64,000 nt of DNA. Source: Octopus vulgaris (Eukaryota). The position numbers were made by a program, and so were the translations under genes. The notes under the pieces are model-generated. The model was not told the DNA's origin, did not search any database, and saw only the letters and a program-made list of their open reading frames with translations. The stretch covers positions 80,104,001-80,168,000 of the forward strand of contig OX597827.1 in NCBI GenBank assembly GCA_951406725.2, given 5' to 3'. Position 1 is the first letter of the stretch, and each line of letters begins with the position of its first letter. Of the stretch, positions 3,015 through 63,989 are shown piece by piece.

Positions 3015-3168
3015 CTGACATTGCTGGTATTTCTTCATACTGTCTACTTGACCGCTCACTCCAGCACTGTCCACTGCTCTTACGACTGGTCAGTGTATCA
3101 GTGGGATAGTGAGAAGATGGTCTGTTGTCTCCATAAGATGTCACTTCAATCGGTTGACTGTATTTCTG
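3015..3168 (-). CDS. Pcdh1 exon E3 (154 nt, cytoplasmic QKYSQPIEV...QYEEIPAMS/G)
   Basis: Acceptor ttttacag|cag, donor CAG|gtagga; phase 0 start matches the E2 donor; near-identical in all seven units. Confidence 0.88.
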
Positions 3169-4093
3169 CTGTAAAATACAATAGTAACAACACATACTGT
3201 AAAGATATCATTTAGGATTAACAGTGCTATATCTGATATTGAATAATTTAGCCTAGTTCTGTATTAAGAAAAGATAAAACATTAGGTTTATAAGCCCTAA
3301 AATTCACTCTATAATTACGTACAGACATATAGCATAGTGGATAAGAGTGCAGGCTACTAACCCTCAGATTCTAAGTTCAATCCCAGACATTGTGTTGGCA
3401 TGTGTAGTATTACTAGTATATCTGTAGTTATCCATGTCATTCATTTTACACAAAATGTTTTACGATGCTTGCAGTCTATTCATTTACATAGAAATATGTG
3501 GAAGACGAGATAATAAATGCTTAAATATTCAAGCATGATTCACAATCTATATTGTTTATCTCTCCATTGTAATCAGATGTATGTAAGCAATATACATTCA
3601 TCATATTATGGCAGTAAAATATGAACAAATGGTTTTTATCTAAACAGCACAAAGTTATTGGGTTTTAACTACATGTATCTGGTGGTTAAGTCAATATTCC
3701 AAAACCTGCCATATAAAGGTTATAAATACTATGTAAAGTTTATGTTACTTGATAAAATTTAAAATATTAAAAAGTTGTAAAGAAGGAACAGTACATTTGC
3801 ATATAATTATCTAAAGTACAATTGTGATGACTAATTTGAAATTTTAAAATATATAAATATCATCATGGTGTTTATGTTTTAATTATCTCAAATGGGGTTA
3901 GCTGAAAGAACACAAAAAATGTCCGAGTAATTAAAAATAAATTCTATAACAATGAGAATACTGATACAAAATACAAGAAAATCATACATTCATACTTTTT
4001 GGTAAACTTCTGCTCATTGTCAATGCTTTTAAGTCATATAATTATTGAACAAACATTCACTGTTAACAAATAGTCAATCCAAGTAAAGCTTAC

Positions 4094-6451
4094 CTTTGTA
4101 GACTTCTGGAGACTTCTGCTCATTGTCGATGTCTTCCAGTCTTCAGGATAGTAATGGCTCCTCGAATGACCGTATCTATCTGACATCTCTCCTCGATTAC
4201 CTGACATCACAGGTACACTGTTGTTACCTTGATAGATCAACTGTCTCATCTCATTGCGACATTGGTATGCCTGTTTCTCTTCTGCTGTTCTTTCAGATGA
4301 GCTATTTCTCACATTGTTACATCTCACAATACACAGGGTTATAGAAACCACAATAGCTATAGATACTATCACAGCTGCTACTACAATGATAATCAACAAT
4401 GTCGCATCTATTGTGTTATCACTTGGTAGGTGCACAGCTGTGAACATTGGTGACGTCTTGTTACTAACAGTCAGTGTCAAAGACACACTAGTTGTTGCTG
4501 ACAGAACTGGAGTACCACTGTCTTTCACAACAAACTCAAGCTCATATGATCCGGCATCATTTTGGTAAACTGTGCGAGAGTAAGATAACACACCAGTGAA
4601 CGAATCCAGTTTAAATAACTGTCTCTCGTTACCTGAAACGATTTCATACCTGAGAAAAGCATTCATGTGACTGTCTATATCAGATGCTTTCAGAACTGTG
4701 ATGTCGTTCTTACTTTGCGGATGATAGTGGACATTAAGAGTGAAAGGGTCAACACTAGGAAATGTAAAATATGGAGCATTATCATTTCTATCCAATACTT
4801 CCACTTCAACATTCACTGTGTTATTCAGAGATGGGCTTCCATTGTCTTTCACAAAAACCTCAAACTCATAGAAATCTCTGTGTTCTCTGTCTAAAGACTG
4901 GTTTGTTGAAATAAAGCCAGAGTTGATAATCTGGAATGGCAGACGATATTGCTGTTTATTTCTCAGAGAATAAGACAATTCACCTCCCTTACCAATATCT
5001 GGGTCTGTAGCATTGATAAAGCCAATAGGGAAATTAGCTTTGTCATTCTCATAGGTAAGGAACTTGAATGTGTCTTTCGTAAAGTGTGGTTCTACATCAT
5101 TCACATCCAACACTTGGATTGACAGATCTTTATCAGTTTTCAGAGCAGGTAATCCTTTATCTTCACACGACACAGTAAAGTGATAATGTTCCTGTGTCTC
5201 TCTGTCTACTGCTTTCTTTAGAACTATTTTATATTCCTTCGATCCCATTGACTGTAGTTTGAATGTGTCGTCTTTGATATGACAGTTCACCTGTCCATTG
5301 TGTCCAACATCATTGTCAGTGACCATCACATAAGCAATGAAACTACCAACTTTGATGTCTTCCAGAATGGTAGCTGTGTTGTGATTCTGTGTAGAAATAA
5401 AGTTCACATCAATATTTGGGGGATTGTTGTGTTCATTGATAACATTTACCAAAACAGTGGCTATGGAACTCAGAGGAGATGCGCCATCATCTCTGGCTTC
5501 AATGTATAATTTAAAAGACTCATCCTTATCAATTTTTGAAGATGTAGCCAAATATAATTTCCCAGTATTTTCATCTAAATTGAAGTTCCTCTTCACTTTC
5601 TCAGTAGTTTTCCTGGCAAAGTAATATGATATTTTACCATTCCTGCCAATGTCTAAATCAGTGGCAGATAATGTGACTACTGGAATGTTCTTTTTATGTT
5701 TATGTTCAATAGAGACATTGTAAATACTTTGAGAAAACAGAGGTGTATTATCATTTTCATCTTTTACAGATATTTTAACATTTAAAACAGATTCTTTTGG
5801 TGGAGTTCCCCCATCTTTAGCAATGACTTCAATATTGTAACTGTCCTTCTTTTCTCTGTCTAATTTCTCTTCTAAAATGATTCGTAATGTTGATATTTCA
5901 TCAGTCTGTTTCGCAACTGATAAAGAAAAATGTCCATTATTCTTTTTCAATTCATAAGTAATTAAGCTGTTTTCTGGACTCATATCCTTGTCAATGGCAT
6001 TAGGTATGTGTTTCTTCATACCTTTACCATCACCTTCCTCAAATTGCAAAGTGATTTCTTTCTGAGGAAACTCAGGTTGGTGGTCATTGATGTCTTCTAT
6101 TATGACTTTAATCTTTAAGATCTTCATAAATGTCTTGGATTTGTGAACAGCAACTTTAACGATTTCAAAACATTCTTTCTCATAACTACACACAGACTCA
6201 GCATCCAATGTCTCAACAGTGTACAGTTTACCTGTTCTCGTCACATTGAACAACTGTTCTCCCTTTTGTTGCAGTTGACTAAATGTAATCAAATCCTTAT
6301 TCTTTAAGAAGGAGCTGTCTGATTTCTGTAGGTCAGTAGCAATGTCCCCTATATAGGTATAGGGACCATTCTCTTCTTTAACATGGTATGTGATATCTTC
6401 ACTTAGACAACAGTGGAAGAAAGTCAATAAAAGACACAGGTGTAACAACAT
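4094..6451 (-). CDS. Protocadherin Pcdh1 large exon E2 (signal peptide, EC1-EC6, TM, proximal tail; 786 codons)
   Basis: Cadherin motifs (LDRE, DxNDNxPxF, AxDxG), EC1 C-x5-C motif CSYEKEC, TM LLIIIVVAAVIVSIAIVVSITLCIV; donor AAG|gtaagc after 4094; acceptor tttcag| places the exon start at 6507. Confidence 0.95.
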
Positions 6452-7180: not shown

Positions 7181-7750
7181 GTTCTCCTCTTTTTCTAACT
7201 CTTTCTTTCTCTCTACCTTTTTCTCTCCCTTTGGAAGAAACTGACTGTACAAATAGACAGTAAACTGAGTTGATCCTGAATTAGTTCCCAAAGTAATCCT
7301 ACGACAAGCATTGATTCAAAGGAAGCATTTTCTATTTCTGATATATTTTTTAAGTTGGTGCAGCAAAAGAGAATCCTTTTATTATAAAAAAACTGTGACG
7401 ATACCTGTACAAAATAATAACTGATATAAACGTAGGTCGTCAGTTGGTTGATTCCTCTTGTTACTCTTTACATTGTATTGAGCAAGAGGTAGACAGAGTA
7501 AAAGAGAGATGCAGAGAGGTGATATAAGAGAGGCAAGATCATAGCACGTACAAGGATTGGTGGCAGGCAATGATAACTGTCAGACAAATAAATATTTTTC
7601 ATTGAAACTTTGCAGAGATAGGTTTTGGATTGATTAGAATTTGATTATGTCAATGAAATTTAGAATAATTATAGCATATGTTTATTGCAAATATGCAAAT
7701 GAGAAATTTGCTTTATTTAATTTTATTGAAGATAATAAATATATTTCCTT

Positions 7751-8047
7751 TCATCATCATCATCATCGTTTAATGTCCGCTTTCCATGCTGGCATGGGTT
7801 GAACGGTTGACTGAGGACTGGTGAGCCTGAGGACTGGTGAGCCAGATGGCTGCACCAGGCTCCAATCTGATCTGACAGAGCTTCTACAACTAGATGTCCT
7901 TCCTAATGCCAACCACTCTGAGAGTATAGTGTGTGCTTTTACGTGCCACCGGCACGATGGCCAGTCAAGCGGTACTGGCAACAGCCACACTCAAATGGTG
8001 TTTTTTATGTGCCACCTGCACAGGAGCCAGTCCAGTGGCACTAAGCA
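7751..8047 (-). mobile_element. 3' fragment of RTE-type LINE/SINE
   Basis: Begins (CAT)n cgtttaatgtccgctttccatgctggcatgggtt, the reverse complement of the tail at 12100-12353. Confidence 0.7.
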
Positions 8048-9840
8048 CCAAGATATTCGATAGAAGTTAAATTATAATTATTTAATGTAAGCCATATTTC
8101 CTGATATTACCAATGATGGCAAAAGTATATTTCGAGAGCATGAAATAACAGATAACACTCGTCTTTGAATAAATTCCAATAACTTCAAATGAATATAAGT
8201 GATCCTGACAACAGAAATGCAAGATTATCTCTGTAGTAAACATTATGTATTTTCACATTTACTGAAAGACAGAGGACATCAATACGTTTTGATTACATCC
8301 CATGGCGAAGACATCAGGAGGAAGACACCAAACTAATTTTCAACAAAGCCAAGTTATTTCACACATATTTCAATATCTGGGACAATAATAACACTACACC
8401 ATTAACTGTCAATATTTTATCATTAATGATAACAATACTGTAACAATACTGTAACATTATTACCTGTGAAACTAGACGAAAGAACATCCAGAACATTTTA
8501 CTAATGCTTCATTTTATGATAAATAGTAATTACACAGTATTTATTGATTTATGACCATGCACACACACAGTCGTACAGGTGATACCTGCCAATTAAAATA
8601 ATCTTAATTAAGAGACAGAGTCAAAAGAGGGTCAGTGTATAATAGTGACCCAGTAAGATGTTTCTACAACACTTCAACTACAGTTTATTTCCTGATAGAG
8701 ATCAAATGTAAGATACTGAAGCAACATTCTCTCCCACAGATAACAAAGCAAGAATGGATTCACATCTCAGATTCTGCATGTAACAAAATGATAATGATGA
8801 CACAAATTTCCAACACACAGACGTAAGTGATAAGACATTACATATTTAAAAATTAAAAACATTTGCAATTTTAGAATTAATTCTTTAGAATGTACTAATT
8901 CATACATCATAAATATATTCTCCTTAGAATAATTCTTAATTTTAATCATGATGAAGGAAACTTCAGCAAGATGGTTCTGAGTTTTAAGCAGGTCAATAAA
9001 ATAACAATCATCAATATGTTGTTATATAAGTAGAAAGGCAGGGATTCATTTATCAATAATTGCAATGTTAGAAAATCTGACAGTTCCAGAGTAATATTGC
9101 ATGGACCCAAATTTTATCAGAACCAATGAAGATTGCAAAATTATTATGAATTAATGAATCAATACTAAAATTAAAATACAACAGACATATTTCACCTATC
9201 AAATATTGATGACTAATTCCAAATATATCTTAAACATAAATATATTACATCTAAAAAAATATTTTAAAAACAAAACCAGTTAGCTAATATATTCAAGATG
9301 AGTGGTATTTTTCAATTATGCTTTAAACCAGAATAGAAAAAGGGCTTATGTTATCACTCGGGAAAAATAAACACACTCAAACACAAATGAGATAAAGATA
9401 TCTTGCAAAATATATCTATATCTGTAGTTAACATGATTATTTCTAGCATTTATATTCTCAAAGGTGAGGTTTATTCTAAAGTCTATCATTTAAGTAATTC
9501 TTGAATGAACTTCACTGACCAAAGACTAAATGATTTATTTGAAACAAAAACAAAAAAAATTCGGCAGAAAATAATTCTTTATAAGTAAAACAGAAATAAG
9601 GGAATTGCTATACACATATCCAAAATATTAAAATATCAAGTACAGAAAAAATTACTGGAATTATATTCTGTACAAGCTTTCAATTTCTTTAATTATCAAT
9701 AAATACAAAAGACAAACGAAGCCTCAACCAGATCTAATATGGCCACCATTACAATATAACATTTTGGTGTCAGAATACAGTCATAAATGAAATCATTGTT
9801 TCACATAATTTGAATAAATAATATGGAATAACAAACTTAC

Positions 9841-10328
9841 CTTCATTGTGTGTAAAATCCTTTGTTATATAAACTGTGACTTGGTCCCAATGTTCTGTTG
9901 TTAATGGTTGTCTGTGTCACTGCTGCTATGGTGTGACAATGGCTTCATGTTGATGGAATAGTGTTGGTGGTGAGTCAGTGGGAACCAGCAGTTCCCTCTC
10001 AGTCTTCCTTTGTGGATGTGTGGTGTTTAGTGTGTGTGTGTGAGTGTGTGTGAAAGGGAGGAGGAGGAGTAGGATGGGTGATGCTTACTACAGCCTCTCT
10101 CAGACTTGATGTTGCCTCTCACACACAAAGACAGAGTAGTGAGAGAACACACACTATCAGCTCCACTAACAGTCAGCCATGATAAGTCTATATAACACCA
10201 ACATGTCTGATGTGGAGAGAGACTGACATAGAAATCCTTAGAACAGAGAGGTTATATTAACAAAATATGGCTGATGTTGTTAATGTGTGGGTAATTTAAA
10301 ATGTAAATACAATATTGACAATAATAGT
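9841..10328 (-). promoter_or_regulatory. Conserved leader exon E1 / putative promoter block of Pcdh1
   Basis: ~490-bp block near-identical in six units, ending in a perfect donor AAG|gtaagt at 9841; contains (CA)n, a TTATATAG TATA-like element and TGAGTCA; TSS cannot be determined from sequence. Confidence 0.7.
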
Positions 10329-10782
10329 TTGTGAGTGTCTGACCTAATTCAAAACAGAGTCTCATATAAGGATATCTATGGGAAATTTAAAGAGACATCT
10401 CAACTAAACAGAATATATTCTCTGAAATATTAATTACTTATCATTTATTTATTTTTTTCTTATAATTTAAATCACATTTTCAAGTATAAACTGAATTTCC
10501 CAGGCATAATGTCTACTTCTGCACAATATTTCACTTAATGATTGTTCATTTAACTATGAAATGTTACCAATGGATTCTTCATATCTGAAGCTGTTAGTTT
10601 CTTGTTCATCTGGAGTAATATTCCCAAGATATACACAAAATATATTCTCTCAAACATATTTGAAGATATTCAGTCATATGTGGGCAATATCATTATCTAA
10701 CTAAAATATTTCTGTTGTTTTTAAATGTTGTGTGAATGTTGAAGGTGATATTATTTCTGTTGTGTTCCTTTCTCAGCCTCAC

Positions 10783-10904
10783 TTAACTGACAACAACATC
10801 TGGTGTTGAAGGTAACTGTCTCTCTGGAGGTTTCACATATCTGTCTTGGTAATGGTCTCTCTCACTGGTGCCTGATACATCGGGTGGGGCACCACCATAG
10901 ATTC
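10783..10904 (-). CDS. Pcdh2 terminal exon E4 (G/IYGGAPPDVS...RQLPSTPDVVVS*)
   Basis: Acceptor gtttcag|GA completes the phase-1 Gly codon from E3; TAA at 10785-10783; six near-identical copies. Confidence 0.85.
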
Positions 10905-11492
10905 CTGAAACACACATACATACATCAAGTAAACTCATTACACAGGTCATACGGTCAATGGGTATTTACTGTCATTAGTAATCAATGTTTTGTCCACAAC
11001 ATTCAATGGACTAAAATGAAGAACAACATCAATAATTAAAGATGTCACATTGAAATCGTGTCTCAGTATCCTACATCAGAGAACATTACAAACCCCAATC
11101 ATACAACTGATATGATAATTTAGACTCAAATGGTTAAATTAAAATCAGCCTATTAAATAACTGCTTTTGCTTACATATTGTTGAAGTTTCCAACCTTGGT
11201 AACAATAATGGGTTGTTCTTAAAACCACATGCTCTCTCACATGTGCTATCTGTTTCCTTAATGAACCTAAGCTAATGAATATTTCATTCAATTACCCTAA
11301 AATTACACAATTAATATATATGTGGATGGACATAATCTTTCATTTTTAGTCACTAGAAGTTACAAAGTGATTCAAAGGCCAAGAGTTTCGAGGATGACAC
11401 TTGATAAGTGTAATGCAAAAAACTCTAAGACTGATTCAGTTACTTTGCAACTTCTTACAATTAAATATATATATATATATATATATACACAT

Positions 11493-12353
11493 ACAGTAGT
11501 GAAACTTGGGCCATGAATGCTGAGGAGATGCGTATGATTGAAAGAAATGAAGCTAGTATGGTCCGCTGGATGTGTAATGTCAGTATGCATACACAACAGA
11601 GTGTGAGCACCCTGAGAGAAAAGTTGGACATAAGAAGCATCAGATGTGGTGTGCAAGAGAGACAACTGCACTGGTATGGTCATGTGTTGTGTATGGATGA
11701 GGACAGCCGTGTGAGGAAGTGTCACACCATAACTGTGGAAGAAACCTGTGAAAGAGGTAGACCCAGGAAGACATGGGATGAGGTGGTGGAGCATGTCCTT
11801 CAAACATTGGGCCTCACAGAGGCAATGACAGGAGATCAAGACCTTTGGAGATATGATGTAATTAAGAAGAGCAGGCAACTTATGTGAGATCGCAGCCAGG
11901 GCCGATGCCAGTGTTGCATGTCTGGCCCATTTAAGAGTACCCTTGATGCGTTGGGTGGTAGGATATCCTTGGGAAGACCTGTTAAGCCAAATAAGACCAA
12001 AATCGTAGCTGTCGCCAATGCCCCCTGACTACCTCCCATGCTGGTGACTTGTAAAAAGCAACATCTGAATGCGGTTGATGCCAGGTCTGCCTGTGTAGCT
12101 CCCAACCCAGTGGTACATAAAAAGCACCATCCGAATGTGATCAATGCCAGGTCCACCTGACTGGCTCCTGTGTTGGTGGCAGGTAAAAAGCACCCACTAC
12201 ACTCTCAGAGTGGCTGGCATTAGGAAGAGCATCTAGCTGTAGAAACCTTGCCAGATCAGATTGGAGCCTGGTGCAGCAGCTGGCTGTCCAGACCTCAGTT
12301 AACCATCCAACCTATACCAGCTTGGAAAACAGACGTTAAACGATGATGATGAT
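11493..12353 (+). mobile_element. 5'-truncated RTE-clade LINE fragment
   Basis: ORF 11513-11887 has RTE C-terminal motifs (SETW, RQLHWYGHV, RGRPRKTW, LWR); 3' tail ends in (GAT)n. Confidence 0.85.
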
Positions 12354-12805
12354 AATTTGCATGTTTTGAATTCTATTTATTCTGCTTCTTCTACAAAGTT
12401 TAAAAAGACAATATAAAACAGCATCTCACAAAGCAGAATACATTTTCAAACATTTGTTGACATTGGAAGAAAATTACAAATTTGCTGACCACTCAACAAC
12501 CTGTAATCAATACTGACAAGAGTAATAAACAACATAAAGAATTGTTCCTTAATTCAACCTGGTGTAAATGGATATCAAGATTAATATATTTGTTGTGTCA
12601 CTATAGAAAGGAGAGAACGAAAATGACTACATATTAGATGAAAATTTTCTTAACTCTCACAATAAGTTCTAATCCTGCCCTGAATGTGGTGAAGCTGAAG
12701 CCATCCAAGTTTATATTTCCCACTTAGATGTTTCCTCCACTTTAGATTTCAGTGGATATGGGTATTTCTGAAGAGAAAAAATTGGTCAAATAAATGTTAT
12801 CCTAC

Positions 12806-12959
12806 CTGACATTGCTGGTATTTCTTCATACTGTCTGCTTGACCGCTCACTCCAGCACTGTCCAGTGCTCTTACGACTGGTCAATGTGTCAGTGGGATAG
12901 TGAGAAGATGGTCTGTTGTCTCCATACGATGTCACCTCAATCGGTTGACTGTACTTCTG
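12806..12959 (-). CDS. Pcdh2 exon E3 (154 nt)
   Basis: Same acceptor, donor and open frame as 3015-3168. Confidence 0.88.
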
Positions 12960-13727
12960 CTGTAAAATGCAATAGTATCAATATATAATGTACAGATAAC
13001 AGTGTAATATTTAGTAATAATGAAATTTACAGGTTTCTTCGGAAGTATAAACAATTTTGTCCAATATTTATGATAATGTAATATTGACAAAATTTTATAT
13101 CTATAGAAAAATCAGTTCAATTTCTTCCATTGATAGTTAAGATTTTTTAATCCTTACTGGCAAGGAGTAGGAGTAATGCCATTCTTCCACTGACAAAATA
13201 CTAAAACCATCACTTTTTACCTCATTATGTTTCCTCATTTCCTATAAGACAAATTAGCCAAAGTCACAAACAACTGTGAACAATACTTTTATAATTGGTT
13301 CTACAGTCTCTCTTAGAGACTTCTTTCTGAAAGGATAATGCAAATTTAGAATGTGTGGATGAACAGAGTAATGTATGATTTGGCAGCCTTAATCTCCAGA
13401 ATAACAGCCTACAAAGATATTTGAGTTGTTGTAACTAAGAGGCTTCCACAATGTCAGATTTTCATTTGTCATAAATTTCTTATAACATACAGACGGTTGT
13501 AATCATAACAAAAGTTAATAATTAAATAAATATAAAGCAAAATTCCTCACTATATCGGAATGGCATTTTCTGATTCATACATAATATATATTTCGAACAT
13601 TTTGAAGCTAAACAGTATGTATATTAGATCAAATTAACTGTAATGTCAAATATAAAATGTGTGATTAAGAAATTATTCTTAATCACACATTATTTACTAA
13701 GAGAATGTTTATTCAAGTAAGGCTTAC

Positions 13728-16085
13728 CTTTGTAGACTTTTGAAGACTTCTGCTCATGGTCGATGTCTTCCAGTCTTCAGGATAGTAATGGCTCCTTGAA
13801 TGACCATATCTGTCTGACATCTCTCCTCGATTACCTGACATCACAGGTACACTGTTGTTACCTTGATAGATCAACTGTCTCATCTCATTGCGACATTGGT
13901 ATGCCTGTTTCTCTTCTGCAGTTCTTTCAGATGAGCTATTTCTCACATTGTTACATCTCACAATACACAGGGTTATAGAAACCACAATAGCTATAGATAC
14001 TATCACAGCTGCTACTACAATGATAATCAACAATGTCGCATCTATTGTGTTATCACTTGGTAGGTGCACAGCTGTGAACATTGGTGACGTCTTGTTACTA
14101 ACAGTCAGTGTCAAAGACACACTAGTTGTTGCCGACAGAACTGGAGTACCACTGTCTTTCACAACAAACTCAAGCTCATATGATCCGGCATCATTTTGGT
14201 AAACTGTGCGAGAGTAAGATAACACACCAGTGAACGAATCCAGTTTAAATAACTGTCTCTCGTTACCTGAAACGATTTCGTACCTGAGAAAAGCATTCAT
14301 GTGACTGTCTATATCAGATGCTTTCAGAACTGTGATGTCGTTCTTACTTTGCGGATGATAGTGGACATTAAGAGTGAAAGGGTCAACACTAGGAAATGTA
14401 AAATATGGAGCATTATCATTTCTATCCAATACTTCCACTTCAACATTCACTGTGTTATTCAGAGATGGGCTTCCATTGTCTTTCACAAAAACCTCAAACT
14501 CATAGAAATCTCTGTGTTCTCTGTCTAAAGACTGGTTTGTTGAAATAAAGCCAGAGTTGATAATCTGGAATGGCAGACGATATTGCTGTTTATTTCTCAG
14601 AGAATAAGACAATTCACCTCCCTTACCAATATCTGGGTCTGTAGCATTGATAAAGCCAATAGGGAAATTAGCTTTGTCATTCTCATAGGTAAGGAACTTG
14701 AATGTGTCTTTCGTAAAGTGTGGTTCTACATCATTCACATCCAACACTTGGATTGACAGATCTTTATCAGTTTTCAGAGCAGGTAATCCTTTATCTTCAC
14801 ACGACACAGTAAAGTGATAATGTTCCTGTGTCTCTCTGTCTACTGCTTTCTTTAGAACTATTTTATATTCCTTCGATCCCATTGACTGTAGTTTGAATGT
14901 GTCGTCTTTGATATGACAGTTCACCTGTCCATTGTGTCCAACATCATTGTCAGTGACCATCACATAAGCAATGAAACTACCAACTTTGATGTCTTCCAGA
15001 ATGGTGGCTGTGTTGTGATTCTGTGTAGAAATAAAGTTCACATCAATATTTGGAGGATTGTTGTGTTCATTGATGACATTTACCATAACAGTGGCTATGG
15101 AACTCAAAGGAGGACTGCCATCATCTCTGGCTTCGATGTATAATTTAAAAGACTCTTCTTTATCAATTTTTGAAGATGTAGCTAAATATAATTTTCCAGT
15201 CCTTTCATGTAAATTAAAGTTTCTCTTCATTTTCTCAGTAGTTTTCCTAGCAAAGTAATATGATATTTTACCATTCCTGCCAATATCTAAGTCATTGGCA
15301 GATAATGTGACTACTGGAATGTTCTTTTTATGTTTATGTTCTATAGAGACATTGTAGATACTCTGAGAAAATTGTGGTCTGTTGTCATTTTCATCTTCTA
15401 CAGATATTTTCACATTCAAAACAGATTTTTTTGGTGGAGTTCCCCCATCTTTAGCAATGACTTCAATATTGTAATTGTCTTTCTTTTCTCTGTCCAATTT
15501 CTCTTCTAAAATAATTTCTAATGTTGATATTTCATCTGTTTGTTTTGAAACTGATAATGAAAAATGTCCATTATCCTTTTTTAATTCATATGTTACCAAG
15601 CTGTTCTTATGACCCATATCATTATCCACAGCATTGGGTATTGATAGTTTTGCTCCTTTACCATCTCTCTCTGAAAACTGAATGTTGACTTCTTCAGTTG
15701 GAAACTCAGGTTGGTGGTCATTGATGTCTTCTATTATGACTTTAATCTTTAAGATCTTCATAAATGTCTTGGATTTGTGAACAGCAACTTTAACGATTTC
15801 AAAACATTCTTTCTCATAACTACACACAGACTCAGCATCCAATGTCTCAACAGTGTACAGTTTACCTGTTTTAGTCACATTGAACAACTGTTCTCCCTTT
15901 TGTTGCAGTTGACTAAATGTAATTAAATCCTTATTCTTTAAGAAGGAGCTGTCTGTTTTCTGTAAGTCAGTAGCAATGTCCCCTACATAGGTATGAGGAA
16001 TATTCTCTTCTTTAACGTGATATGTAATATCTTCACTTGCATAACAGTGGAAGAAAGTCAGTAAAACACACAGGTGTAACAACAT
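13728..16085 (-). CDS. Protocadherin Pcdh2 large exon E2 (786 codons)
   Basis: Six cadherin repeats plus TM; donor AAG|gtaagc; acceptor ctctttcag| places the exon start at 16141. Confidence 0.95.
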
Positions 16086-16824
16086 CTCTGGTCCTGATGT
16101 TAATGCAGTATCCAGAAAAAAGATGACTTGAAAAATTTGGTCTGAAAGAGAAAATATTTTGTTTCAATGAGCAATTTTGACTAGTTTCGGTTTATTTCAA
16201 TGCATGAATATTTCTTAAACAAATTAAGTGACTAGCAATCATATGTAATTATAATCTTTTCTAGCGCTTATAAAACTACCAGTTTTCCATAAAATCCTCA
16301 AAGATGATTTTATGTCATTTTATTCAACACACACAGTTTAATAAGAAATCTATTTGCATAAATATTCTTTTAAATTTATAACTCCCTTGTGATTCACTAA
16401 TTTCTTTCCAATTTATCATCTTAATCTTTCACACATTATATTTATTATGTGTCCACTAACCCAGGTAATATATTTTATATAATTACCCTCACTAATACTC
16501 AATAATTGCATTCAGATCCTATCCATTATACCCTTTATCTAAAATGTAATATATTTTAGAAGCTGTCATAGTGACATAACTATCACAACAACATTGTATT
16601 TAATTTCAATGTGAAATGCTCATTTTGATTATATACACAAATAATGGAAAGAATAGAAAACAACGGATTTTAATAACAATTCAGAAATTTCATGTTTTGT
16701 TCTCCAGCTGTTTCCATGACCCATATGATAACATAATCAATTATATAATGATTATCTAATTATTTGTACATATTAAATTAACTTGATTCAATGTTATGTG
16801 ATAGACATTTCATTTACACTTATT

Positions 16825-17032
16825 CTTTTCACCTCAAGGTACAAGGTCTGAAATTTTGGGGGAGGGGGCCAGTCGATTTGATCGACCACCAGTAAGTAGC
16901 TGGTACTTATTTTATCGACCCCGAAAGGATGAGGGCAAAGGTGACCTCAGCGGAATTTGAACTCAGAACGTAAAGACAGATGAAAGACTGCTAAGCATTT
17001 CGCTTGGCATGCTAATGTTTCTGCCAGCTCAC
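16825..17032 (-). mobile_element. tRNA-derived SINE (octopus-type)
   Basis: Minus strand reads gagctggcagaaacattagc...gagttcaaattccgctgaggtcacctttgccctcatcctttcggggtcgataaaataagtaccag (A/B boxes plus core); paralogous copy at 35421-35622. Confidence 0.75.
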
Positions 17033-17419
17033 TTCTACAATTGTTCACTCTATTATATGTAACATTCAATGAACAACAGGTTCCTCTGGAAACTGGTTTC
17101 CAACTACGTCTCCTAATAGTTTCCTGCATTTATGGTGATAATGAGAGTGGGAAAGAGACATCTGTGAGACTCGAGGGGAAGAAATACTGGAACGTATTTC
17201 GTTTTTAAAGTACTTTATAATTAGTTTTAATTTCTTTTGCCAATTTGATAATATATTGGAGCAAACGATCTACACATATATATATATACATACAGAACCA
17301 ATGTAAAAATCTACATTACACACATACATACACTTACAAAATATACATCTACTGAATAAGTTCTAATGAAATGTCTTCCACATCATATTGATACGTAACA
17401 AAGTTTCACAGTAATATTT

Positions 17420-30068: not shown

Positions 30069-30099
<31 letters not shown>

Positions 30100-30100
30100 T

Positions 30101-37837: not shown

Positions 37838-37840
<3 letters not shown>

Positions 37841-50885: not shown

Positions 50886-51039
50886 CTGACATTGCTGGTA
50901 TTTCTTCATACTGTCTGCTTGACCGCTCACTCCAGCACTGTCCACTGCTCTTACGACTGGTCAATGTGTCAGTGGGATAGTGAGAAGATGGTCTGTTGTC
51001 TCCATAGGATGTCACCTCAATCGGTTGACTGTATTTCTG
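50886..51039 (-). CDS. Pcdh6 exon E3 (154 nt)
   Basis: Conserved splice sites and frame. Confidence 0.8.
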
Positions 51040-52010: not shown

Positions 52011-54369
52011 TTTTATAGATTTTTGAAGTGTTCTGTTCATTGTCGATGTCTTCCAGTCTTCAGGATAGTAATGGCTCCTCGAATGACCATATCTCTCTGA
52101 CATCTCTCCTCGATTACCTGACATCACAGGTACACTGTTGTTACCTTGATAGATCAACTGTCTCATCTCATTGCGACATTGGTATGCCTGTTTCTCTTCT
52201 GCTGTTCTTTCAGATGAGCTATTTCTCACATTGTTACATCTCACAATACACAGGGTTATAGAAACCACAATAGCTATAGATACTATCACAGCTGCTACTA
52301 CAATGATAATCAACAATGTCGCATCTATTGTGTTATCACTTGGTAGGTGCACAGCTGTGAACATTGGTGACGTCTTGTTACTAACAGTCAGTGTCAAAGA
52401 CACACTAGTTGTTGCTGACAGAACTGGAGTACCACTGTCTTTCACAACAAACTCAAGCTCATATGATCCGGCATCATTTTGGTAAACTGTGCGAGAGTAA
52501 GATAACACACCAGTGAACGAATCCAGTTTAAATAACTGTCTCTCGTTACCTGAAATGATTTCATACCTGAGAAAAGCATTCATGTGACTGTCTATATCAG
52601 ATGCTTTCAGAACTGTGATGTCGTTCTTACTTTGCGGATGATAGTGGACATTAAGAGTGAAAGGGTCAACACTAGGAAATGTAAAATATGGAGCATTATC
52701 ATTTCTATCCAATACTTCCACTTCAACATTCACTGTGTTATTCAGAGATGGGCTTCCATTGTCTTTCACAAAAACCTCAAACTCATAGAAATCTCTGTGT
52801 TCTCTGTCTAAAGACTGGTTTGTTGAAATAAAGCCAGAGTTGATAATCTGGAATGGCAGACGATATTGCTGTTTATTTCTCAGAGAATAAGACAATTCAC
52901 CTCCCTTACCAATATCTGGGTCTGTAGCATTGATAAAGCCAATAGGGAAATTAGCTTTGTCATTCTCATAGGTAAGGAACTTGAATGTGTCTTTCGTAAA
53001 GTGTGGTTCTACATCATTCACATCCAACACTTGGATTGACAGATCTTTATCAGTTTTCAGAGCAGGTAATCCTTTATCTTCACACGACACAGTAAAGTGA
53101 TAATGTTCCTGTGTCTCTCTGTCTACTGCTTTCTTTAGAACTATTTTATATTCCTTCGATCCCATTGACTGTAGTTTGAATGTGTCATCTTTGATATGAC
53201 AGTTCACCTCTCCATTGTGTCCAACATCATTGTCAGTGACCATCACATAAGCAATGAAACTACCAACTTTGATGTCTTCCAGAATGGTAGCTGTGTTGTG
53301 ATTCTGTGTAGAAATAAAGTTCACATCAATATTTGGAGGACTGTTTTGTTGGTTGATGACATTTACCATAACCGTTGCTATGGAGCTGAGAGGAGGCATA
53401 CCTTTATCTTTAGCTTTTACATACAATTTAAATGACTCTTTTATATCCAGATTTAAAGGTTTTTCTAAGAATAATTTCCCAGAATTTTCATCTAGATGGA
53501 AGTATTCTTTCATTTTAGCATCTGTTTTCTGACTGAAATAGAAAGATATTTTACCATTCCTGCCAATATCTAAATCACTGGCAGATAATGTGATGACTGG
53601 AATATTCTTTTTATGTTTATGTTCAATAGAGACATTGTAGATACGTTGGGAAAATTCTGGTTTATTATCATTTTCATCTTCTACAGATATTTTAACATTT
53701 AAACCAGATTGTTTTGGTGGAGTTCCCCCATCTTTAGCAATGACCTCAATATCATAATTGTCCTTCTTTTCTCTGTCTAATTTATCTTCTAAAATAATTT
53801 CTAATGTTGATAATCCATCATCTTCTTTGGAAACACTTAATGAAAAATGTCCATTATCTTTTTTTAATTCATAAGTAATTAAGCTGTTTTCATGACTCAT
53901 ATCCTTGTCTATAGCATGAGGTATGGGTTTCTTCATACCATCTCTGTCTCCTTCCCTAAAACTTAGAGTAATTTCTTTCTGAGGAAACTCAGGTTGGTGG
54001 TCATTGATGTCTTCTATTATGACTTTAATCTTTAAGATCTTCATAAATGTCTTGGATTTGTGAACTGCAACTTTAACGATTTCAAAACATTCTTTCTCAT
54101 AACTACACACAGACTCAGCATCCAATGTCTCAACAGTGTACAGTTTACCTGTTCTCGTCACATTGAACAACTGTTCTCCCTTTTGTTTGCAGTTGACTAA
54201 ATGTAATTAAATCCTTATTCTTTAAGAAGGAGCTGTCTGATTTCTGTAAGTCAGTAGCAATGTCCCCTACATAGGTATAGGGAATATTCTCTTCTTCAAC
54301 ATGGTATGTGATATCTTCACTTAAATAACAGTGGAAGAAAGTCAGTAAAATGCACAGATACAACAACAT
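52011..54369 (-). pseudogene. Protocadherin Pcdh6 large exon E2 with +1 frameshift in EC1 (pseudogene or assembly error)
   Basis: ttttgtttgc at 54181-54190 versus ttttgttgc in the six other copies; the rest of the exon, donor AAA|gtaaga and acceptor (exon start 54425) are intact. Confidence 0.75.
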
Positions 54370-57019
54370 CTCTGGTCTTGACGTTAATGCAATATCCAAG
54401 GAAATGTTGATTTCAAATTTTTCATCTGGAAAATAAATAAATAGCCTTTAAGTAATAAAAAATAAGTTGTAATTTTATTTGAAGTGGCTTTTAAATAACC
54501 AGATTTATGTTAATGTGAAAGGATGCCATTTCTATGAATAAAGAAGATTCTTTTATTGTGAAATATAAGTAGCAATGAAGAGGAGACAGAGATTAGATTT
54601 TATTTGTTGATTCCACCTTTAAAATACTCTTTGAGAACCTTAATTTCCCTGAGTACCACTTAGTTCCCTCTCTTTTTACTTCCAAAGAATATCTTCATAT
54701 TCTAATGAGTACAGATATAAAATCAAAAAATTACATCTCATAACTCCTTACAAATCTTTTTATTGATACTTTACTGATATAATATAATCCTCATAACTCA
54801 ACATTTCAGGTGTCTATTCATATTCTCATCTTAATGATTAATTAGTTCCTTCTTTATAGTTACTTTCTATAGAGAAAAATAAACAAACACTCATGATATG
54901 ATACTATCAAGGCAGTATTAGGATTTCTACATTTACAGCATTACGAGTTAGTGCTATACTACTCTACAGAATAAATCTATAGGATTCGGTCATCACAAAC
55001 GTCAATATTGTATTGCAATAGAAGACAGCCAATGCACCAGTAATTATGAGTTAGCTCCCTTGCAGATCACTAAACAAACCTGTTAGAAAACGATATAATT
55101 TCCTATTTAAAAAAAAATTCGTTAATAATGTATAAAATAGGAAATATTGCAAAAATAACCTTAATTCGATAACTTTGAGATTACTTTGATGTTATAAACG
55201 ACATAAATACTGGGAAAATTATATTTATACCTCTATGGCCCTCTTTAAATACTTGTAAATTATCACAGCTATAAGAACAATGTTAGAGAAACGATCCCAA
55301 TATAATGTACCATCAACAGCAGGAAAAGGTAAATATTATAACAAGAAGACATTTTTACGACAACTCTACAGAAACAAAAGAGGAAACTGAAAATAGAATA
55401 TCCATCGCAAAATGAGAATGAAACTACATCTTTTGATATCAGATTGGTTTTGAGTGAGCAGACATTCCAGAAGTGGCTATCCCAACTTTTCTTCAAAAGT
55501 AACATATCGTGGACTCTGCCATGTAATGTCTTCTTTCTTTTTTAGGATGGTAGGCTGTGATTTGAGTGAGATTTGGCTGCTATTTCAAGAAAGTGGAGAA
55601 ACCAACACTAGTTCTCTCACTGACCATTAATGATGTAGGTCACAATCACAATTTCAACAAAACGACATGACATCTAATACCATTTAATTAATATCTACCA
55701 ACTTATTCGTTAACATAACATCCCATATTTAGTCAAAAGTAGTTTAATCTTTGCCCAGTTGCTCTGTCTGGATGTCAACTTTATCCAAACCAGTCTATAA
55801 AAATATTTCAAATCATTTATCCATTTGTATAATTAAACAATATTCAATTTATCCATCAGTAGGCAGGTTTACAAGAGATTTATATAAGGTCATTAACAGA
55901 ATTCTGTTTTTGTCTTTTGTTGTGTCCACCAAATGGTGGGGACTGGGTGTGGTGTGAACGCTTATGTTTCTTGGACCCTTTCAAAAATTCAATTGTGTGT
56001 GTGAGAAAAAGATGGGGGGGGGGGAGATAGAAAAGGAGAGAAGGGATATCAACTCCTGTAAATAAGGAGTAGCTTATGAAGCCCAAAGGGATGTAAAGTA
56101 AATTTGGTTTCTGTGCGATTTGAACTCAGAACCCAGAAGACTTCAGACCATACCAATTCCCTATTGTGACTCTATGAGAGACAATATTACCTAACGATAT
56201 ATTTGAGAAGAGCAATGAAATACAACACAGAAACAATAAAGACAGTTTAACCAACAAATAATCGTTTTTATAAATAAAGTAAAATATCCATAGAAGAAAC
56301 TGAGCTAGAAATTATAAAACTGTTACATTTTAATGGTTGAAATATACAAAATAATTCTAATTAGCAAATGTGATTCAAGTGTTCAGAAATGATCTAGTCA
56401 TGATAGGTAGTATTTAAAATTTGTATAAAGACAAAGCATAAAGATGAAGGAAAACAGGAGAAGCAGCAATTATATATTGTACATATACATACATAGAAAC
56501 GCAGCCAAATACATTGATTATATATAGACACATACACTCACACAATAGCATATATACCTAGGTTCATACATATTTTAACCTTCTTTTAGTATTATTTATA
56601 TTTCCAATAATGTGTTTATATTTTACACGGTATCAAATTATTTCCATAAAGCATTTATAAATGTAAATATTCAACAAGAAAAATATTCTAGTGAAAGGCA
56701 GAGGCACGTCAACTGGAATATAATGGTTTAGCAAAGAAATGAAAGTTGCAGTGAATTTATAAAGATCCGACAAAGATGTGTGAAAAAAACATCACATCAA
56801 AATGATTACAAATCATATTCCTGAACAATTCCTGCTTCCCTACAATTATCAACAAAATATTTGAAAGCCACAATAGAAAAGGAAGTCATTAAAAAAGGCA
56901 TAATACAAATCAAATATGGCCACCATTAAATTACTCCAGTCTGATGTTCCAATATGCCTATGTACAGGAAACTGTTACTTTACATGACTAAATAAATAAT
57001 ATAGAATAAACAAACTTAC

Positions 57020-57939: not shown

Positions 57940-58061
57940 TTAACTGACAACAACATCTGGTGTTGAAGGTAACTGTCTCTCTGGAGGTTTCACATATCTG
58001 TCTTGGTAATGGTCTCTCTCACTGGTGCTTGATACATCGGGTGGGGCACCACCATAGATTC
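57940..58061 (-). CDS. Pcdh7 terminal exon E4
   Basis: Acceptor gtttcag|GA, 122 coding nt ending in TAA. Confidence 0.85.
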
Positions 58062-59119: not shown

Positions 59120-59270
59120 TAAATCATCATCATTAAGCAACATCTGTGTTCCATGCTGGCATGGGTTGGACAGTTTGACAACAGCTGGCAAGTCAGAAGG
59201 CTGAGCTTGCTTTGGTTTCTATAGCTGGATGCCCTTCCTAATGCCAACCACTTTTCAAAGTGTACTGGGT
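59120..59270 (-). mobile_element. Degenerate RTE-type 3' tail fragment
   Basis: catcatcatt...ttccatgctggcatgggttgga...gctggatgcccttcctaatgccaaccac as in 7751-8047. Confidence 0.6.
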
Positions 59271-60843
59271 ACTTAGCAAAGTGAGTACTTTTCGAACTGG
59301 GTACTTAATGAGGTCACCAAGACAAGACCACTCAATAGGGGTGGGGTATAGTACTGAGGGAGGTGTCTTGAGGTAAAGGAAATACATAGTTACCCCAGCT
59401 GAAGGAAGTGAGGAGTAAGGGAGAAGAGAGAGAAGATGGTGAAAACGTGAATGGCAGATATGTGTAAAGTAGAAGATAAATTTAAAGTTTATTTTAATCA
59501 TACATCTTTCAGACACAGGAAAGGGGAAAATCACATCACAACCTAATTAAAAGGTCCATCACTTAATTATCACACAATCTTCATTTTATAAAACTTCCTA
59601 AATAAAAATAAGTTATTTTTCTACTTAACAGTACAAATAACTAATTATCTCAAAATCCCATTTATTTTACTCATTAATTAACCTACCGAAATTCACTGCA
59701 CTCTCCACACAATGGTCTATGTTTCCTTATAAATTTCTTCCTATGCAAAGGTAGAATCTGCCTTCCCAGCAGGAATCTCTGGTTGGGTGATGCAATATAA
59801 TAATATTGCAGGCTTTGCTTAACACCAAAGAGAATAGGCATGTTTATAACAAGTGTGGGTGTAGAGCGCCATCAGGGCTTGTCTGAGGAAATAGCAGTGA
59901 GAAGAATGAGACAGGCTAGTCCCTGCCAGAGACTTCAGGAACTCCCAGACAACCAGCTATGGGAAACAACACAAGAGCTCCAAAGGAAAGATGTCCCACA
60001 GCAACACACACAGATGCGCTATAAGAAATACATAGATGTGGCAACTACAGAAAAGCTAGCAAGATGCTGAACTGTAATCACAACAAAACAAATCTCATAA
60101 CATAGAAAATCAAGCAAATTAATCTAAATTGATTGCACATTGAGAAAGACAAAAGCTGTAATGAGCAAATATGAAGCAAAAGTCACTTCCATCAAACTAA
60201 GTCTTAATACCATGTACAAAGTCTACAGTACGTTCAATTATATGTCTTTCTTCAGACATTTAGAAGAGAAGAATACAATATTATATAAAAACACATCTGG
60301 AATGTGAAAAAACATGCAGCTTATTTCGATATCAAATAGAAAAAATCTGAATGTTGCAGGCCATACAGAAACTGGCAAAAAGATGCAGGTTTATGCACAG
60401 GTGAGAAGAGCCTTATGCTGGGGGGGGGAAATGTAAGATCAGATTCTTTACTACAATCTTTCAACTTGATGAGGTCATGTTGGATGGAGACCACCGCTGC
60501 CGTTGAGCCACCAACATCACCAGATGAAATGGCCCATCATGTAATTATTCCATGTACTTTATTACAAATTGTAATAAAGCCAAGTTTATAACAATATGAA
60601 TATATGTAGTTGAGCACGTGATGAAACACTGAGCCCAAAACAAATGGACAACTGTGTGTTGTCCACAAACATTAAAGGTCATCTTAAAGAGATAATCCTT
60701 ACTAATTCATGTAAATGTTAGCCATGTTCTGGACTGAATATATAAAAAAATTGATGTCATCAAAATCCTGTGCTTTATTTAGGGTTCACTCCATTGTGTA
60801 CCACTGGTAATAATAAAAAAATAAATGAATGAGATTGTTTTAC

Positions 60844-60997
60844 CTGACATTGCTGGTATTTCTTCATACTGTCTACTTGACCGCTCACTCCAGCACTGCC
60901 CACTGCTCTTACGACTGGTCAATGTGTCAGTGGGATAGTGAGAAGACGGTCTGTTGTCTCCATAAGATGTCACCTCAATGGGTTGACTGTATTTCTG
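60844..60997 (-). CDS. Pcdh7 exon E3 (154 nt)
   Basis: Acceptor gtcaccag|cag, donor CAG|gtaaaa; exon near-identical to the others, flanks diverged. Confidence 0.85.
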
Positions 60998-61631
60998 CTG
61001 GTGACAAAACAGAACATTATATAAGCATAAATGCATTGTCACCTGCCAGGAATAGTTTACATCATCTCCGATGGGAATCTAAAAATGTTATATAATATGA
61101 ACAGTCAGAATCAAATGTTGATTAGATCTGGGATAAACAACCACAAGATATGATACCTTCATCAACAAAACTTAACTTTATAAATAACACACGTGGTTAA
61201 CCAGGTACATTTTAGAGATTGTAATAGTTTGACACATAGTCAACATGCTTGAAGCATAAAACACTGGACTCTGTTTTAGGACCAACACATTATCCATTAT
61301 TTAAGACTAAACAGAAAAGACAACAAAGGGAAATTTGAATAAACTAAAATCATTCATGTGTACAAACAGTTTGAAAGTGGAATACATTGGTTTGCAATGA
61401 GAATCAGAATACGTAGAACCTCCCAACACAGGCTATAACTACATCACTCAGAACTTAGAGCTTATTTCATCATACACAGATGATGTAATTCACTATAAAG
61501 TAAGGGAATTTCTAAATTAACTGAAAGAATAAAAGATTAGCAATGCATAGAAATCTGCTTGTAATTCAGAGTTACAATTTACTTCAGGTAATGTCAAAAT
61601 ATTAAGAAATTACAGAATCTTTAATACTTAC

Positions 61632-63989
61632 CTTTGTGGACTTTTGAAGTGATCTGCTCATTGTCGATGTCTTCCAGTCTTCAGGATAGTAATGGCTCCT
61701 CGAATGACCATATCTCTCTGACATCTCTCCTCGATTACCTGACATCACAGGTACACTGTTGTTACCTTGATAGATCAACTGTCTCATCTCATTGCGACAT
61801 TGGTATGCCTGTTTCTCTTCTGCTGTTCTTTCAGATGAGCTATTTCTCACATTGTTACATCTCACAATACACAGGGTTATAGAAACCACAATAGCTATAG
61901 ATACTATCACAGCTGCTACTACAATGATAATCAACAATGTCGCATCTATTGTGTTATCACTTGGTAGGTGCACAGCTGTGAACATTGGTGACGTCTTGTT
62001 ACTAACAGTCAGTGTCAAAGACACACTAGTTGTTGCTGACAGAACTGGAGTACCACTGTCTTTCACAACAAACTCAAGCTCATATGATCCGGCATCATTT
62101 TGGTAAACTGTGCGTGAGTAAGATAACACACCAGTGAAAGAGTCCAGTTTAAATAACTGTCTCTCGTTACCTGAAACGATTTCATACCTGAGAAAAGCAT
62201 TCATGTGACTGTCTATATCAGATGCTTTCAGAACTGTGATGTCGTTCTTACTTTGCGGATGATAGTGGACATTAAGAGTGAAATGGTCAACACTAGGAAA
62301 TGTAAAATATGGAGCATTATCATTTCTATCCAATACTTCCACTTCAACATTCACTGTGTTATTCAGAGATGGGCTTCCATTGTCTTTCACAAAAACCTCA
62401 AACTCATAGAAATCTCTGTGTTCTCTGTCTAAAGACTGGTTTGTTGAAATAAAGCCAGAGTTGATAATCTGGAATGGCAGACGATATTGCTGTTTATTTC
62501 TCAGAGAATAAGACAATTCACCTCCCTTACCAATATCTGGGTCTGTAGCATTGATAAAGCCAATAGGGAAATTAGCTTTGTCATTCTCATAGGTAAGGAA
62601 CTTGAATGTGTCTTTCGTAAAGTGTGGCTCTACATCATTCACATCCAACACTTGGATTGACAGATCTTTATCAGTTTTCAGAGCAGGTAATCCTTTATCT
62701 TCACACGACACAGTAAAGTGATAATGTTCCTGTGTCTCTCTGTCTACTGCTTTCTTTAGAACTATTTTATATTCCTTCGATCCCATTGACTGTAGTTTGA
62801 ATGTGTCATCTTTGATATGACAGTTCACCTCTCCATTGTGTCCAACATCATTGTCAGTGACCATCACATAAGCAATGAAACTACCAACTTTGATGTCTTC
62901 CAGAATGGTGGCTGTGTTGTGATTCTGTGCAGAAATAAAGTTCACATCAATATTAGGGGGATTATTGTGTTGGTTGATGACATTTACCATAACAGTAGCT
63001 ACAGAACTTAGTGGGGGACTGCCTTCATCCCTTGCTTCAATGTATAATTTATATGATTCTTCCTTACCAATTTGTAATTGTTTAGCTAAATACAACATAC
63101 CAGTGTTTTCCTTTAATACAAAATTATTCCTAATTTTATCAGGAGTTTTTCTACTAAAATAATATGATATTTTACCATTCCTGCCAATATCTAAATCACT
63201 GGCAGATAATGTGACTACTGGAATATTCTTTTTATGTTTATGTTCAATGGAGACATTGTAGACATGTTGGGAAAATTCTGGTTTATTATCATTTTCATCT
63301 TCCACAGATATTTTCACATTTAAAACAGATTGTTTTGGTGGAGTTCCTCCATCTTTAGCAATGACCTCAATATTGTAGTTGTCTTTCTTTTCTCTGTCTA
63401 ATTTACCCTCTAATATAATTTCTAATGATGATAAACCATCAGCTTCTTTGGAGACTGATAAGGAAAAATATTTATCATCATTTCTTAGTTCATATGTAAT
63501 TAAGCTGTTCTGGTATCCAATATCTTTGTCAATAGCACCCGGTATAGTTTTCTTCATTCCATCACGGTCTCCTTCGCCAAAGATTACTGTTATTTCTTTC
63601 TGAGGAAACTCAGGTTGGTGGTCATTGATGTCTTCTATTATGACTTTAATCTTTAAGATCTTCATAAATGTCTTGGATTTGTGAACAGCAACTTTAACGA
63701 TTTCAAAACATTCTTTCTCATAACTACACACAGACTCAGCATCCAATGTCTCAACAGTGTACAGTTTACCTGTTCTCGTCACATTGAACAACTGTTCTCC
63801 CTTTTGTTGCAGTTGACTAAATGTAATTAAATCCTTATTCTTTAAGAAGGAGCTGTCTGATTTCTGTAAGTCAGTAGCAATGTCCCCTACATAGGTATAG
63901 GGACTATTCTCTTCTTTAACATGGAATGTGATATCTTCACTTAGATAACAATGGAAGAAAGTCAGCAAAACACACAGGTGTAACAACAT
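61632..63989 (-). CDS. Protocadherin Pcdh7 large exon E2 (786 codons)
   Basis: Six cadherin repeats plus TM; donor AAG|gtaagt; acceptor and leader exon lie beyond the window end. Confidence 0.95.

Follow-up and report, generated by a model that had tools for sequence, protein, structure and literature searches.

In mammals, homophilic binding and stochastic promoter choice have been demonstrated for the clustered protocadherins (PMC4978886, PMC5106212, and PMC5001838; these and the other papers cited here are drawn on in excerpt), and the escape of extracellular cadherin domains (ECs) 2 and 3 from gene conversion is established in vertebrates (PMC4978886). For the protocadherin expansion of coleoid cephalopods, Albertin 2022 (PMC9068888) described the formation of sub-arrays by full gene duplication and suggested homogenization by gene conversion, and Styfhals 2019 (PMC6339937) likewise suggested conversion among cephalopod protocadherins. 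Jiang 2022 (PMC9795677) dated most of one octopod cluster to 8–14 million years by whole-gene distances, the word conversion being unused in the excerpted text, and the excerpts of PMC9068888 contain no claim on the function of the expansion. Here, we describe a 64,000-nt stretch of the Octopus vulgaris genome (contig OX597827.1; G000:C14:80104001-80168000; hereafter, the window), which contains seven tandem protocadherin genes. In these genes, near-identity is confined to particular domains and exons, very probably as a result of gene conversion, and EC2-3 retains lineages that predate the Octopus-Argonauta split.

Domain-wise divergence in the window and in the array

Six-frame translation revealed seven long cadherin-repeat frames on the minus strand of the window. 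In all seven genes, the large exon has 786 codons between the start codon and a GT donor, and downstream of every large exon are a 154-nt exon (E3) and a short last exon. Pfam assigned a Cadherin_2 domain (cadherin-like EC1) and five Cadherin stretches to gene 1; EC1 with five cadherin repeats, a single transmembrane (TM) segment, and an ectodomain within one large exon are the features by which coleoid protocadherins are recognized.

Between genes 1 and 7, 15 of 1308 nt differ over residues 345-780 and 1 of 225 nt over residues 54-128, compared with 136 of 645 nt over residues 130-344, in line with the initial annotation of this DNA, which had estimated one to two dozen differences over 1.3 kb of the near-identical part and described EC2-3 as extensively different. 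Among the 21 pairs of the seven genes, the synonymous and non-synonymous divergences (dS and dN) are 0.50 and 0.12 in EC2-3, but 0.022 and 0.002 in EC4-TM; equality of the two dS values had been named in advance as the outcome that would speak against domain-restricted conversion. The dS of the second part of EC1 (residues 54-124) is 0.032. Near-identity of the whole remainder, as originally proposed, stood for EC4-TM and residues 54-124 but not for the two ends of the large exon, where the signal peptide (dS 0.49) and the final 26 codons (dS 0.32) have diverged too. It also stood for E3, with a mean of 4.5 differences in 153 nt among the seven genes, and for the coding part of the last exon, with ~1 difference in 117 nt among 13 genes. 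The term 'hypervariable', in contrast, does not fit EC2-3, which retains 79.7% protein identity with a dN/dS of 0.24 among the seven genes and is old and constrained.

Of the introns that follow the large exon, the one in gene 7 cannot be aligned with any of the other six, the one in gene 6 aligns over 0–23%, and the one in gene 1 over at most 10%; the introns of genes 6 and 7 are mostly unalignable, as annotated, but are not special in this respect. Introns other than those of the gene 2/4 pair are partly alignable at 69–84% or not at all. Identity falls below 50% within 10–30 nt outside E3; in an ungapped profile, it is 88–100% per 10 nt inside E3 and 46% ten bases into the intron, and in the last exon it extends into the 3' untranslated region. 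Toward the end of the large exon, identity is already down to 77–84% over the final 40 nt. Because the contrast in divergence sits at synonymous sites, protein constraint alone cannot produce it. It follows from the intron comparison that EC2-3 and the introns are of roughly equal age, with the remainder of the exon much younger.

All 150 scored matches (of 903 candidates) to EC2-3 are located on the contig of the window. The genes form a tandem, same-strand array on one chromosome, and the named relatives among the best matches listed are Octopus, Argonauta, and cuttlefish protocadherins. We sampled the window with a 200-kb flank (264 kb) and 60 further stretches, obtaining 79 near-complete exons and 17 fragments; a cluster at 0.6–15 Mb, five matches at 82.2–82.9 Mb, and the stretch 79.943–80.004 Mb lie outside this sample. 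At least 26 genes with the tail type of the window occupy 79.94–80.26 Mb (320 kb). In this subcluster, dS is 0.96 in EC2-3, 0.77 in EC1, and 0.034 in EC4-TM, with values of 1.06 in EC2 and 0.002 in EC5; EC1 is homogenized in local subgroups only, and EC4-tail across the full 320 kb. The copies L001-L006 (80.007–80.057 Mb) carry an E3 that is 96–100% like those of the window genes together with a different last exon (~64–67%), indicating that the last exon and EC1 are homogenized by subgroup and EC4-E3 across the array.

A second subcluster of 25 genes (80.38–80.67 Mb; the dS count excludes one further gene, which contains three stops) carries a tail type of its own, ~70% identical to that of the first, and shows a dS of 0.63 in EC2-3 vs 0.045 in EC4-TM; the corresponding values in a third subcluster of seven genes (79.19–79.33 Mb) are 0.41 vs 0.048. 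Two groups that are looser, with 8 and 11 genes, yielded 0.72 vs 0.35 and 1.69 vs 0.97, respectively. Low dS is thus not intrinsic to the tail, and strong homogenization accompanies tight tandem packing. Among 276 pairs of 24 genes, EC2-3 distance increases with genomic distance (rho 0.41), whereas tail distance does not (rho -0.14). GC-biased conversion is expected to raise third-position GC in converted domains, and third-position GC is 0.36 in EC4-6 vs 0.24–0.28 in EC2-3. In the 264 kb, an own E3 follows 24 of the 25 large exons and a last-exon match 23 of them, confirming that each gene keeps its own 'constant' exons; all 24 E3 matches are separate from their large exon, with no intron loss seen.

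Cross-species comparison, predicted interface, and alternative explanations

The paper nautilus Argonauta carries a counterpart of this array. From one of its contigs, 40 proteins among the best 120 of 1117 matches were aligned at the protein level and assigned by tail identity to the first subcluster (24 proteins), the second subcluster (10), or the outgroup (one), five being left out. In the first subcluster (26 octopus vs 24 Argonauta proteins), 14 species-fixed residues are present in EC4-tail and none in EC1-3; in the second (26 vs 10 proteins), EC4-tail has 36 such residues, EC1 a single one, and EC2-3 none. In EC3, 12 of 24 and 10 of 10 Argonauta proteins of the first and second subclusters, respectively, are nearer to an octopus copy than to any Argonauta copy, whereas none is in EC5 and EC6. 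In the EC2-3 tree of the first subcluster, the species label requires 14 changes, of which starred branches force 12 (as few changes occurred in 26 of 500 shuffles), and an Argonauta sister on a starred branch is present for six octopus genes, including gene 7. In the tail tree (a quick tree), two changes suffice, including one in the outgroup pair (as few changes occurred in 0 of 500 shuffles), and quick trees of the second subcluster require eight for EC2-3 and two for the tail. The per-domain trees with a related species that had been proposed thus mix Octopus and Argonauta in EC2-3 and separate them in the tails. Lineages older than the species split in EC2-3, combined with a younger EC4-tail, are the signature of concerted evolution. 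Judged from these sequences, the tail pattern is concerted evolution, with recent duplication excluded, and the EC2-3 lineages predate the Octopus-Argonauta split. The initial proposal of whole-gene duplication with domain-restricted conversion is therefore borne out by the dS contrast, by species-fixed Argonauta tails alongside shared EC2-3 types, by third-position GC, and by the gene-specific downstream exons; conversion of the tail is, on this evidence, very probable.

The sparing of EC2-3 by conversion is supported by the dS contrast and the cross-species types, but requires qualification in that EC2-3 is itself a mosaic. In the window genes, the proportion of synonymous differences (pS) is 0.53 at residues 130-195, 0.21 at residues 196-272, and 0.38 at residues 273-338, giving two peaks and one trough. 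The trees of the EC2 and EC3 modules of 13 genes reject each other (approximately unbiased test, p 1.5e-5 and 3.4e-4), and a permutation test for recombination over EC2-3 yielded p 0.002; on EC3 alone, the recombination test was not significant (p 0.89 for the window genes and 0.10 for the 13 nearest genes). A single EC2 class is found in combination with two EC3 classes (genes 2, 4, and the 80.202-Mb gene vs the 80.098- and 80.185-Mb genes), and one EC3 class is paired with several EC2 classes. Genes 2 and 4, whose introns are 98% and 94% identical, are a recent duplicate, yet 28 of 324 nt differ in EC3, which points to patches received from other copies. As far as the alignments indicate, conversion makes the body uniform and redistributes differences in the head, where EC2 and EC3 modules are exchanged between genes.

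The trans interface of vertebrate delta and clustered protocadherins, as given in the excerpt of PMC5115871, involves the A-B loop, strand B, D-E loop, and start of strand E in EC2, the linker, and the C-D loop, strand F, F-G loop, and strand G in EC3. Using this list and placing the elements by cadherin motifs, we compared 69 predicted-interface residues with 140 others; the strand limits agree within ~2 residues with an alignment-based AlphaFold model (predicted local distance difference test score, 85). The proportion of non-synonymous differences is higher on the predicted interface, i.e. 0.154 vs 0.094 (p 0.006) in the seven window genes and 0.183 vs 0.108 (p 0.001) in the 13 nearest genes. 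Since pS rises equally in both sets, the increase suggests shielding from conversion, not faster protein change. For mammalian isoforms, residues that vary between paralogues but are kept in orthologues have been used as a test (PMC5106212). Among the paralogue-variable sites of six Octopus-Argonauta pairs, the species differ at 28% of 31 interface sites vs 41% of 66 others (p 0.004), and conservation of the interface is also seen on all sites (p 0.003 by residue and 0.012 by element). A predicted interface that is better kept between species is a modest hint of binding specificity.

The explanation that we favour, with a probability of roughly 0.6, is that the tails are kept uniform by ongoing conversion between copies and that the EC2-3 surfaces predicted to set partner choice are shielded by selection, which would thereby maintain binding specificity in EC2-3. 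Conversion would act at the DNA level in the germline between tandem paralogues and would be sustained where purifying selection preserves long identity. By analogy with vertebrate structures, the receptors may form an antiparallel EC1-4 trans dimer, in which EC2 faces EC3 and EC1 faces EC4. Since the genes of a subcluster do not differ in EC4, every EC1 type would meet the same EC4, leaving EC2:EC3 to determine partner choice within the subcluster. A common subfamily identity, cis partner surface, and signal would be provided by the subcluster-specific EC4-6 and tail; EC5-6, being 98–100% identical within the subcluster, would permit promiscuous cis dimers. The outcome would be a receptor set with a variable head and a constant body, made by conversion instead of splicing.

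Several observations weigh against this explanation. Enrichment of amino-acid variation at the predicted interface is seen neither among all 26 genes (p 0.54) nor in the second subcluster (p 0.73), nor do Argonauta paralogues show greater variability at these residues. A rise in dN/dS on the interface was looked for and not found (0.25 vs 0.24; 0.24–0.29 for EC2-3), and EC2-3 thus gives no indication of positive selection for change. The conservation of the interface, based on only six pairs, loses strength when the most variable sites are considered (p 0.075). Among genes 1-5, the EC3 module is shared at 85–89% identity, so that cross-binding could occur within this class, and EC1:EC4 has been argued to carry specificity in mammals as well (Goodman 2016, in excerpt). 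The solved ectodomains nearest to these proteins are ~30% identical, with no cephalopod structure among the matches listed. In the assembly, three of the 26 genes, which may be pseudogenes or reflect assembly errors, are frameshifted (at 54186-54188 in the window, 80.0716 Mb, and 80.1947 Mb) and one lacks the end of its tail. A homodimer prediction for EC1-4 of gene 1 (score 0.06), run without controls, speaks neither for nor against the explanation. Published single-cell data give ~21 protocadherins per neuron, some of them cell-type-enriched (excerpt of PMC9712504). The barcode envisaged in the initial annotation is hinted at by the better-kept interface between species, but not by the lack of an amino-acid-change excess, the restriction of interface enrichment to the sets of seven and 13 genes, and the shared EC3; a strict or combinatorial neuronal barcode is, in our view, plausible but less likely than not. 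Equally tentative is the broader idea of an octopod neuronal self-recognition code convergent with the mammalian one, in which conversion would replace shared constant exons, EC2-3 specificities would be kept for tens of millions of years across species, breakpoints at the conserved EC2-EC3 junction would recombine modules into new receptors, and a combinatorial barcode would operate with class-wise cross-binding.

The strongest competitor accepts conversion but takes the escape of EC2-3 as passive, with weaker constraint allowing drift past the identity needed and largely redundant adhesion molecules kept for dosage or different expression sites. The dN/dS of 0.24 in EC2-3 without interface excess, the missing enrichment in the 26-gene set and the second subcluster, and gene turnover with frameshifts agree with such an escape, and introns, signal peptide, and exon edges, all weakly constrained, escape too. 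Yet escape involves the same pair of domains in each of three subclusters, in Argonauta, and in vertebrates, homogenization is stronger in the non-interface middle (residues 196-272) than in either flank, and paralogue-variable interface sites are better kept across species, so we consider passive escape rather unlikely. A template of spliced RNA or cDNA instead of neighbouring genomic DNA could explain why homogenization stops at exon edges, given the sharp drop at the edge of E3 and the continuation into the 3' untranslated part of the last exon. It is improbable, as identity fades already within the last 40 nt of the large exon, none of the 24 E3 matches shows intron loss, and purifying selection on exons with DNA templates yields the same edges.

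That the near-identity is an artefact of assembly collapse or polishing is very improbable, even though a direct raw-read check placed only 0 and 6 reads from two DNA runs and residual assembly errors are suggested by the three frameshifted genes of the 26. The pattern recurs in separate proteins of Argonauta, which has fixed residues of its own, and of O. sinensis; the remaining tail differences are mostly synonymous, third-position GC is shifted, and two contigs (323 and 443 nt) from what is probably an RNA run of another sample match the tail with four and two differences, respectively. Recent whole-gene duplication followed by very fast EC2-3 evolution under positive selection would account for small whole-gene distances, the published dating of most of one octopod cluster to 8–14 million years, and the 8.5-kb duplicate of genes 2 and 4. 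With synonymous sites and introns diverged too, a dN/dS of 0.24, and six EC2-3 types with an Argonauta sister on starred branches, however, it is the least credible of these alternatives.

Gene layout, transcription, and flanking sequences

All features of the seven genes are on the minus strand. The large coding exon of gene 1 (4094-6451) encodes the signal peptide, EC1-6, TM, and the proximal tail; its EC2-EC3 (residues 125-343; 5423-6079) is the diverged block with peaks at residues 130-195 and 273-338 and a partly homogenized trough between them, and its E3 is located at 3015-3168. For genes 2 to 5, the large coding exon, EC2-3, E3, and the coding part of the last exon up to the stop codon are located at 13728-16085, 15057-15713, 12806-12959, and 10783-10904 (gene 2); 24041-26398, 25370-26026, 22367-22520, and 20273-20394 (gene 3); 32336-34693, 33665-34321, 31414-31567, and 29381-29502 (gene 4, the recent duplicate of gene 2); and 42291-44648, 43620-44276, 41301-41454, and 40245-40366 (gene 5). 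The corresponding positions are 52011-54369, 53340-53996, 50886-51039, and 48346-48467 in gene 6 and 61632-63989, 62961-63617, 60844-60997, and 57940-58061 in gene 7, whose EC2-3 is sister to that of Argonauta P0014. An acceptor lies 55–60 nt upstream of the start codon in genes 1-6. The genes are not all complete in the window, contrary to the initial annotation: a single extra base at 54186-54188 shifts the frame of gene 6 within EC1, the last exon of gene 1 lies outside the window, ~90–210 bases before its start, and the 5' acceptor of gene 7 is beyond its end.

Contigs of two probable RNA runs cover the exons of gene 6 and not the flanking introns; RNA-like contigs skip the 971-nt intron preceding its E3 and also join E3 to last-exon sequence, the copies being too alike for the source gene of these joints to be assigned. 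Transcription of a gene-6-like allele is probable, given a 278-nt EC3 contig from a probable RNA run that has five differences to gene 6 and at least 40 to every other gene of the 26. An RNA-like contig without the extra base is uninformative on the reality of the gene 6 frameshift, since its sequence is exactly that of the paralogue at 80.177 Mb. A tandem CAG-CAG acceptor is present at E3 (3163-3171 in gene 1, and likewise at the other E3s), and the RNA-contig joint uses the upstream CAG. As the E3 copies are nearly identical, splicing of one gene into the E3 of another may also occur.

An AT-rich non-coding block is located 1.2–3.8 kb upstream of genes 1-5 (9119-9335, 18515-18739, 27613-27837, 38485-38709, and 46086-46304; 74–85% alike) and could be either promoter-side or the 3' end of the upstream gene. 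It was not found before genes 6 and 7, and no motif search aimed at the conserved sequence element (CSE) or CTCF sites was made. Low-depth contigs of the probable RNA runs map at 55557-55993, 1.2–1.6 kb upstream of gene 6; this segment, which matches only itself in the 264 kb, is a probable candidate for a non-coding first exon of gene 6.

DxND is the usual calcium-binding motif of cadherin linkers. The EC3-EC4 linker (5423-5440; residues 339-343 of gene 1, and the same site in genes 2-7) lacks its aspartates and may bind fewer calcium ions and be more flexible. The duplicate containing genes 2 and 4 with their surroundings spans 9407-17866 and 27994-36457 (95.8% identity), and further spacer duplicates of 2.5–2.8 kb are present at 17866-20910, 27222-30012, and 37837-40595. 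A ~790-nt element occurs twice in opposite orientation (21493-22262 and 36971-37758; 78% alike), the second copy overlapping a 231-codon frame (37062-37754), and the pair is probably a transposon remnant. A short interspersed repeat found in both orientations (1144-1304, 7750-8027, 12110-12357, 30706-30965, and 59123-59274) is likely to be an element of the SINE (short interspersed nuclear element) type. Elsewhere in the array, the outlying copy L020 (G000:C14:80261153-80263279) matches the other copies through EC6 and then diverges, with no E3 match nearby, and is a probable truncated gene.

Comparison with known protocadherin systems

Compared with published accounts of the coleoid expansion, as excerpted (PMC9068888, PMC6339937, and PMC9795677), the present analysis limits conversion to part of EC1, EC4-6, TM, and the tail exons, and adds, at the domain level, old EC2-3 lineages with reshuffled EC2 and EC3 modules. 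A full-text literature search, partial in its coverage, returned no report of the domain-restricted pattern, cross-species EC2-3 types, or binding data in cephalopods, and a domain-level remark may be present in earlier papers or supplements. Conversion in cephalopods had already been suggested and the domain pattern is known in vertebrates; domain-restricted conversion in cephalopods is, as far as the search reached, what is new here. Distances are 0.36 in EC2-3, 0.014 in the homogenized body, and 0.145 over the whole gene. Whole-gene distances thus blend an old EC2-3 with a freshly homogenized body, and the burst dated to 8–14 million years may reflect conversion, not gene birth, provided that the dated cluster is the array of the window. 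Near-identical exons may also confound short-read and 3' single-cell counts. The pattern names the domains and natural chimeras that bear on a possible role of the cephalopod expansion as a neuronal identity code.

Vertebrate delta-protocadherin genes are mostly dispersed and are not homogenized. Delta-protocadherins (Pcdh8, 10, 17, and 19; excerpt of PMC5115871) were the top sequence and fold matches for EC1-4 among the matches listed and, like the window genes, are whole genes with their own tail exons. The clustered alpha, beta, and gamma protocadherins of vertebrates share with the window genes the encoding of six ECs in one large exon (PMC4978886, PMC5106212, and PMC5001838, in excerpt) and a dS that peaks in EC2 or EC3 and is at its minimum in EC5 or EC6 (PMC4978886). 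The identities of EC1, EC2, EC3, and EC5 are 96, 69, 59, and 98% in mouse alpha and 97, 79, 81, and 100% in the window; the dS contrast between EC5 (0.002) and EC2 (1.06) in the octopus subcluster greatly exceeds that of mouse alpha (7.9-fold) and resembles that of zebrafish Pcdh2ab (231-fold), as given in the same excerpt. Gene conversion spares EC2-3 in both systems, although EC2-3 is a mosaic here. Unlike vertebrate alpha and gamma, the octopus genes have no shared constant exons; an independent origin has been stated (PMC9068888, in excerpt), and identity to delta and clustered protocadherins alike is ~30%. The window genes belong to the coleoid protocadherin expansion, not to the vertebrate clusters, yet they evolve like those clusters at the level of individual domains.

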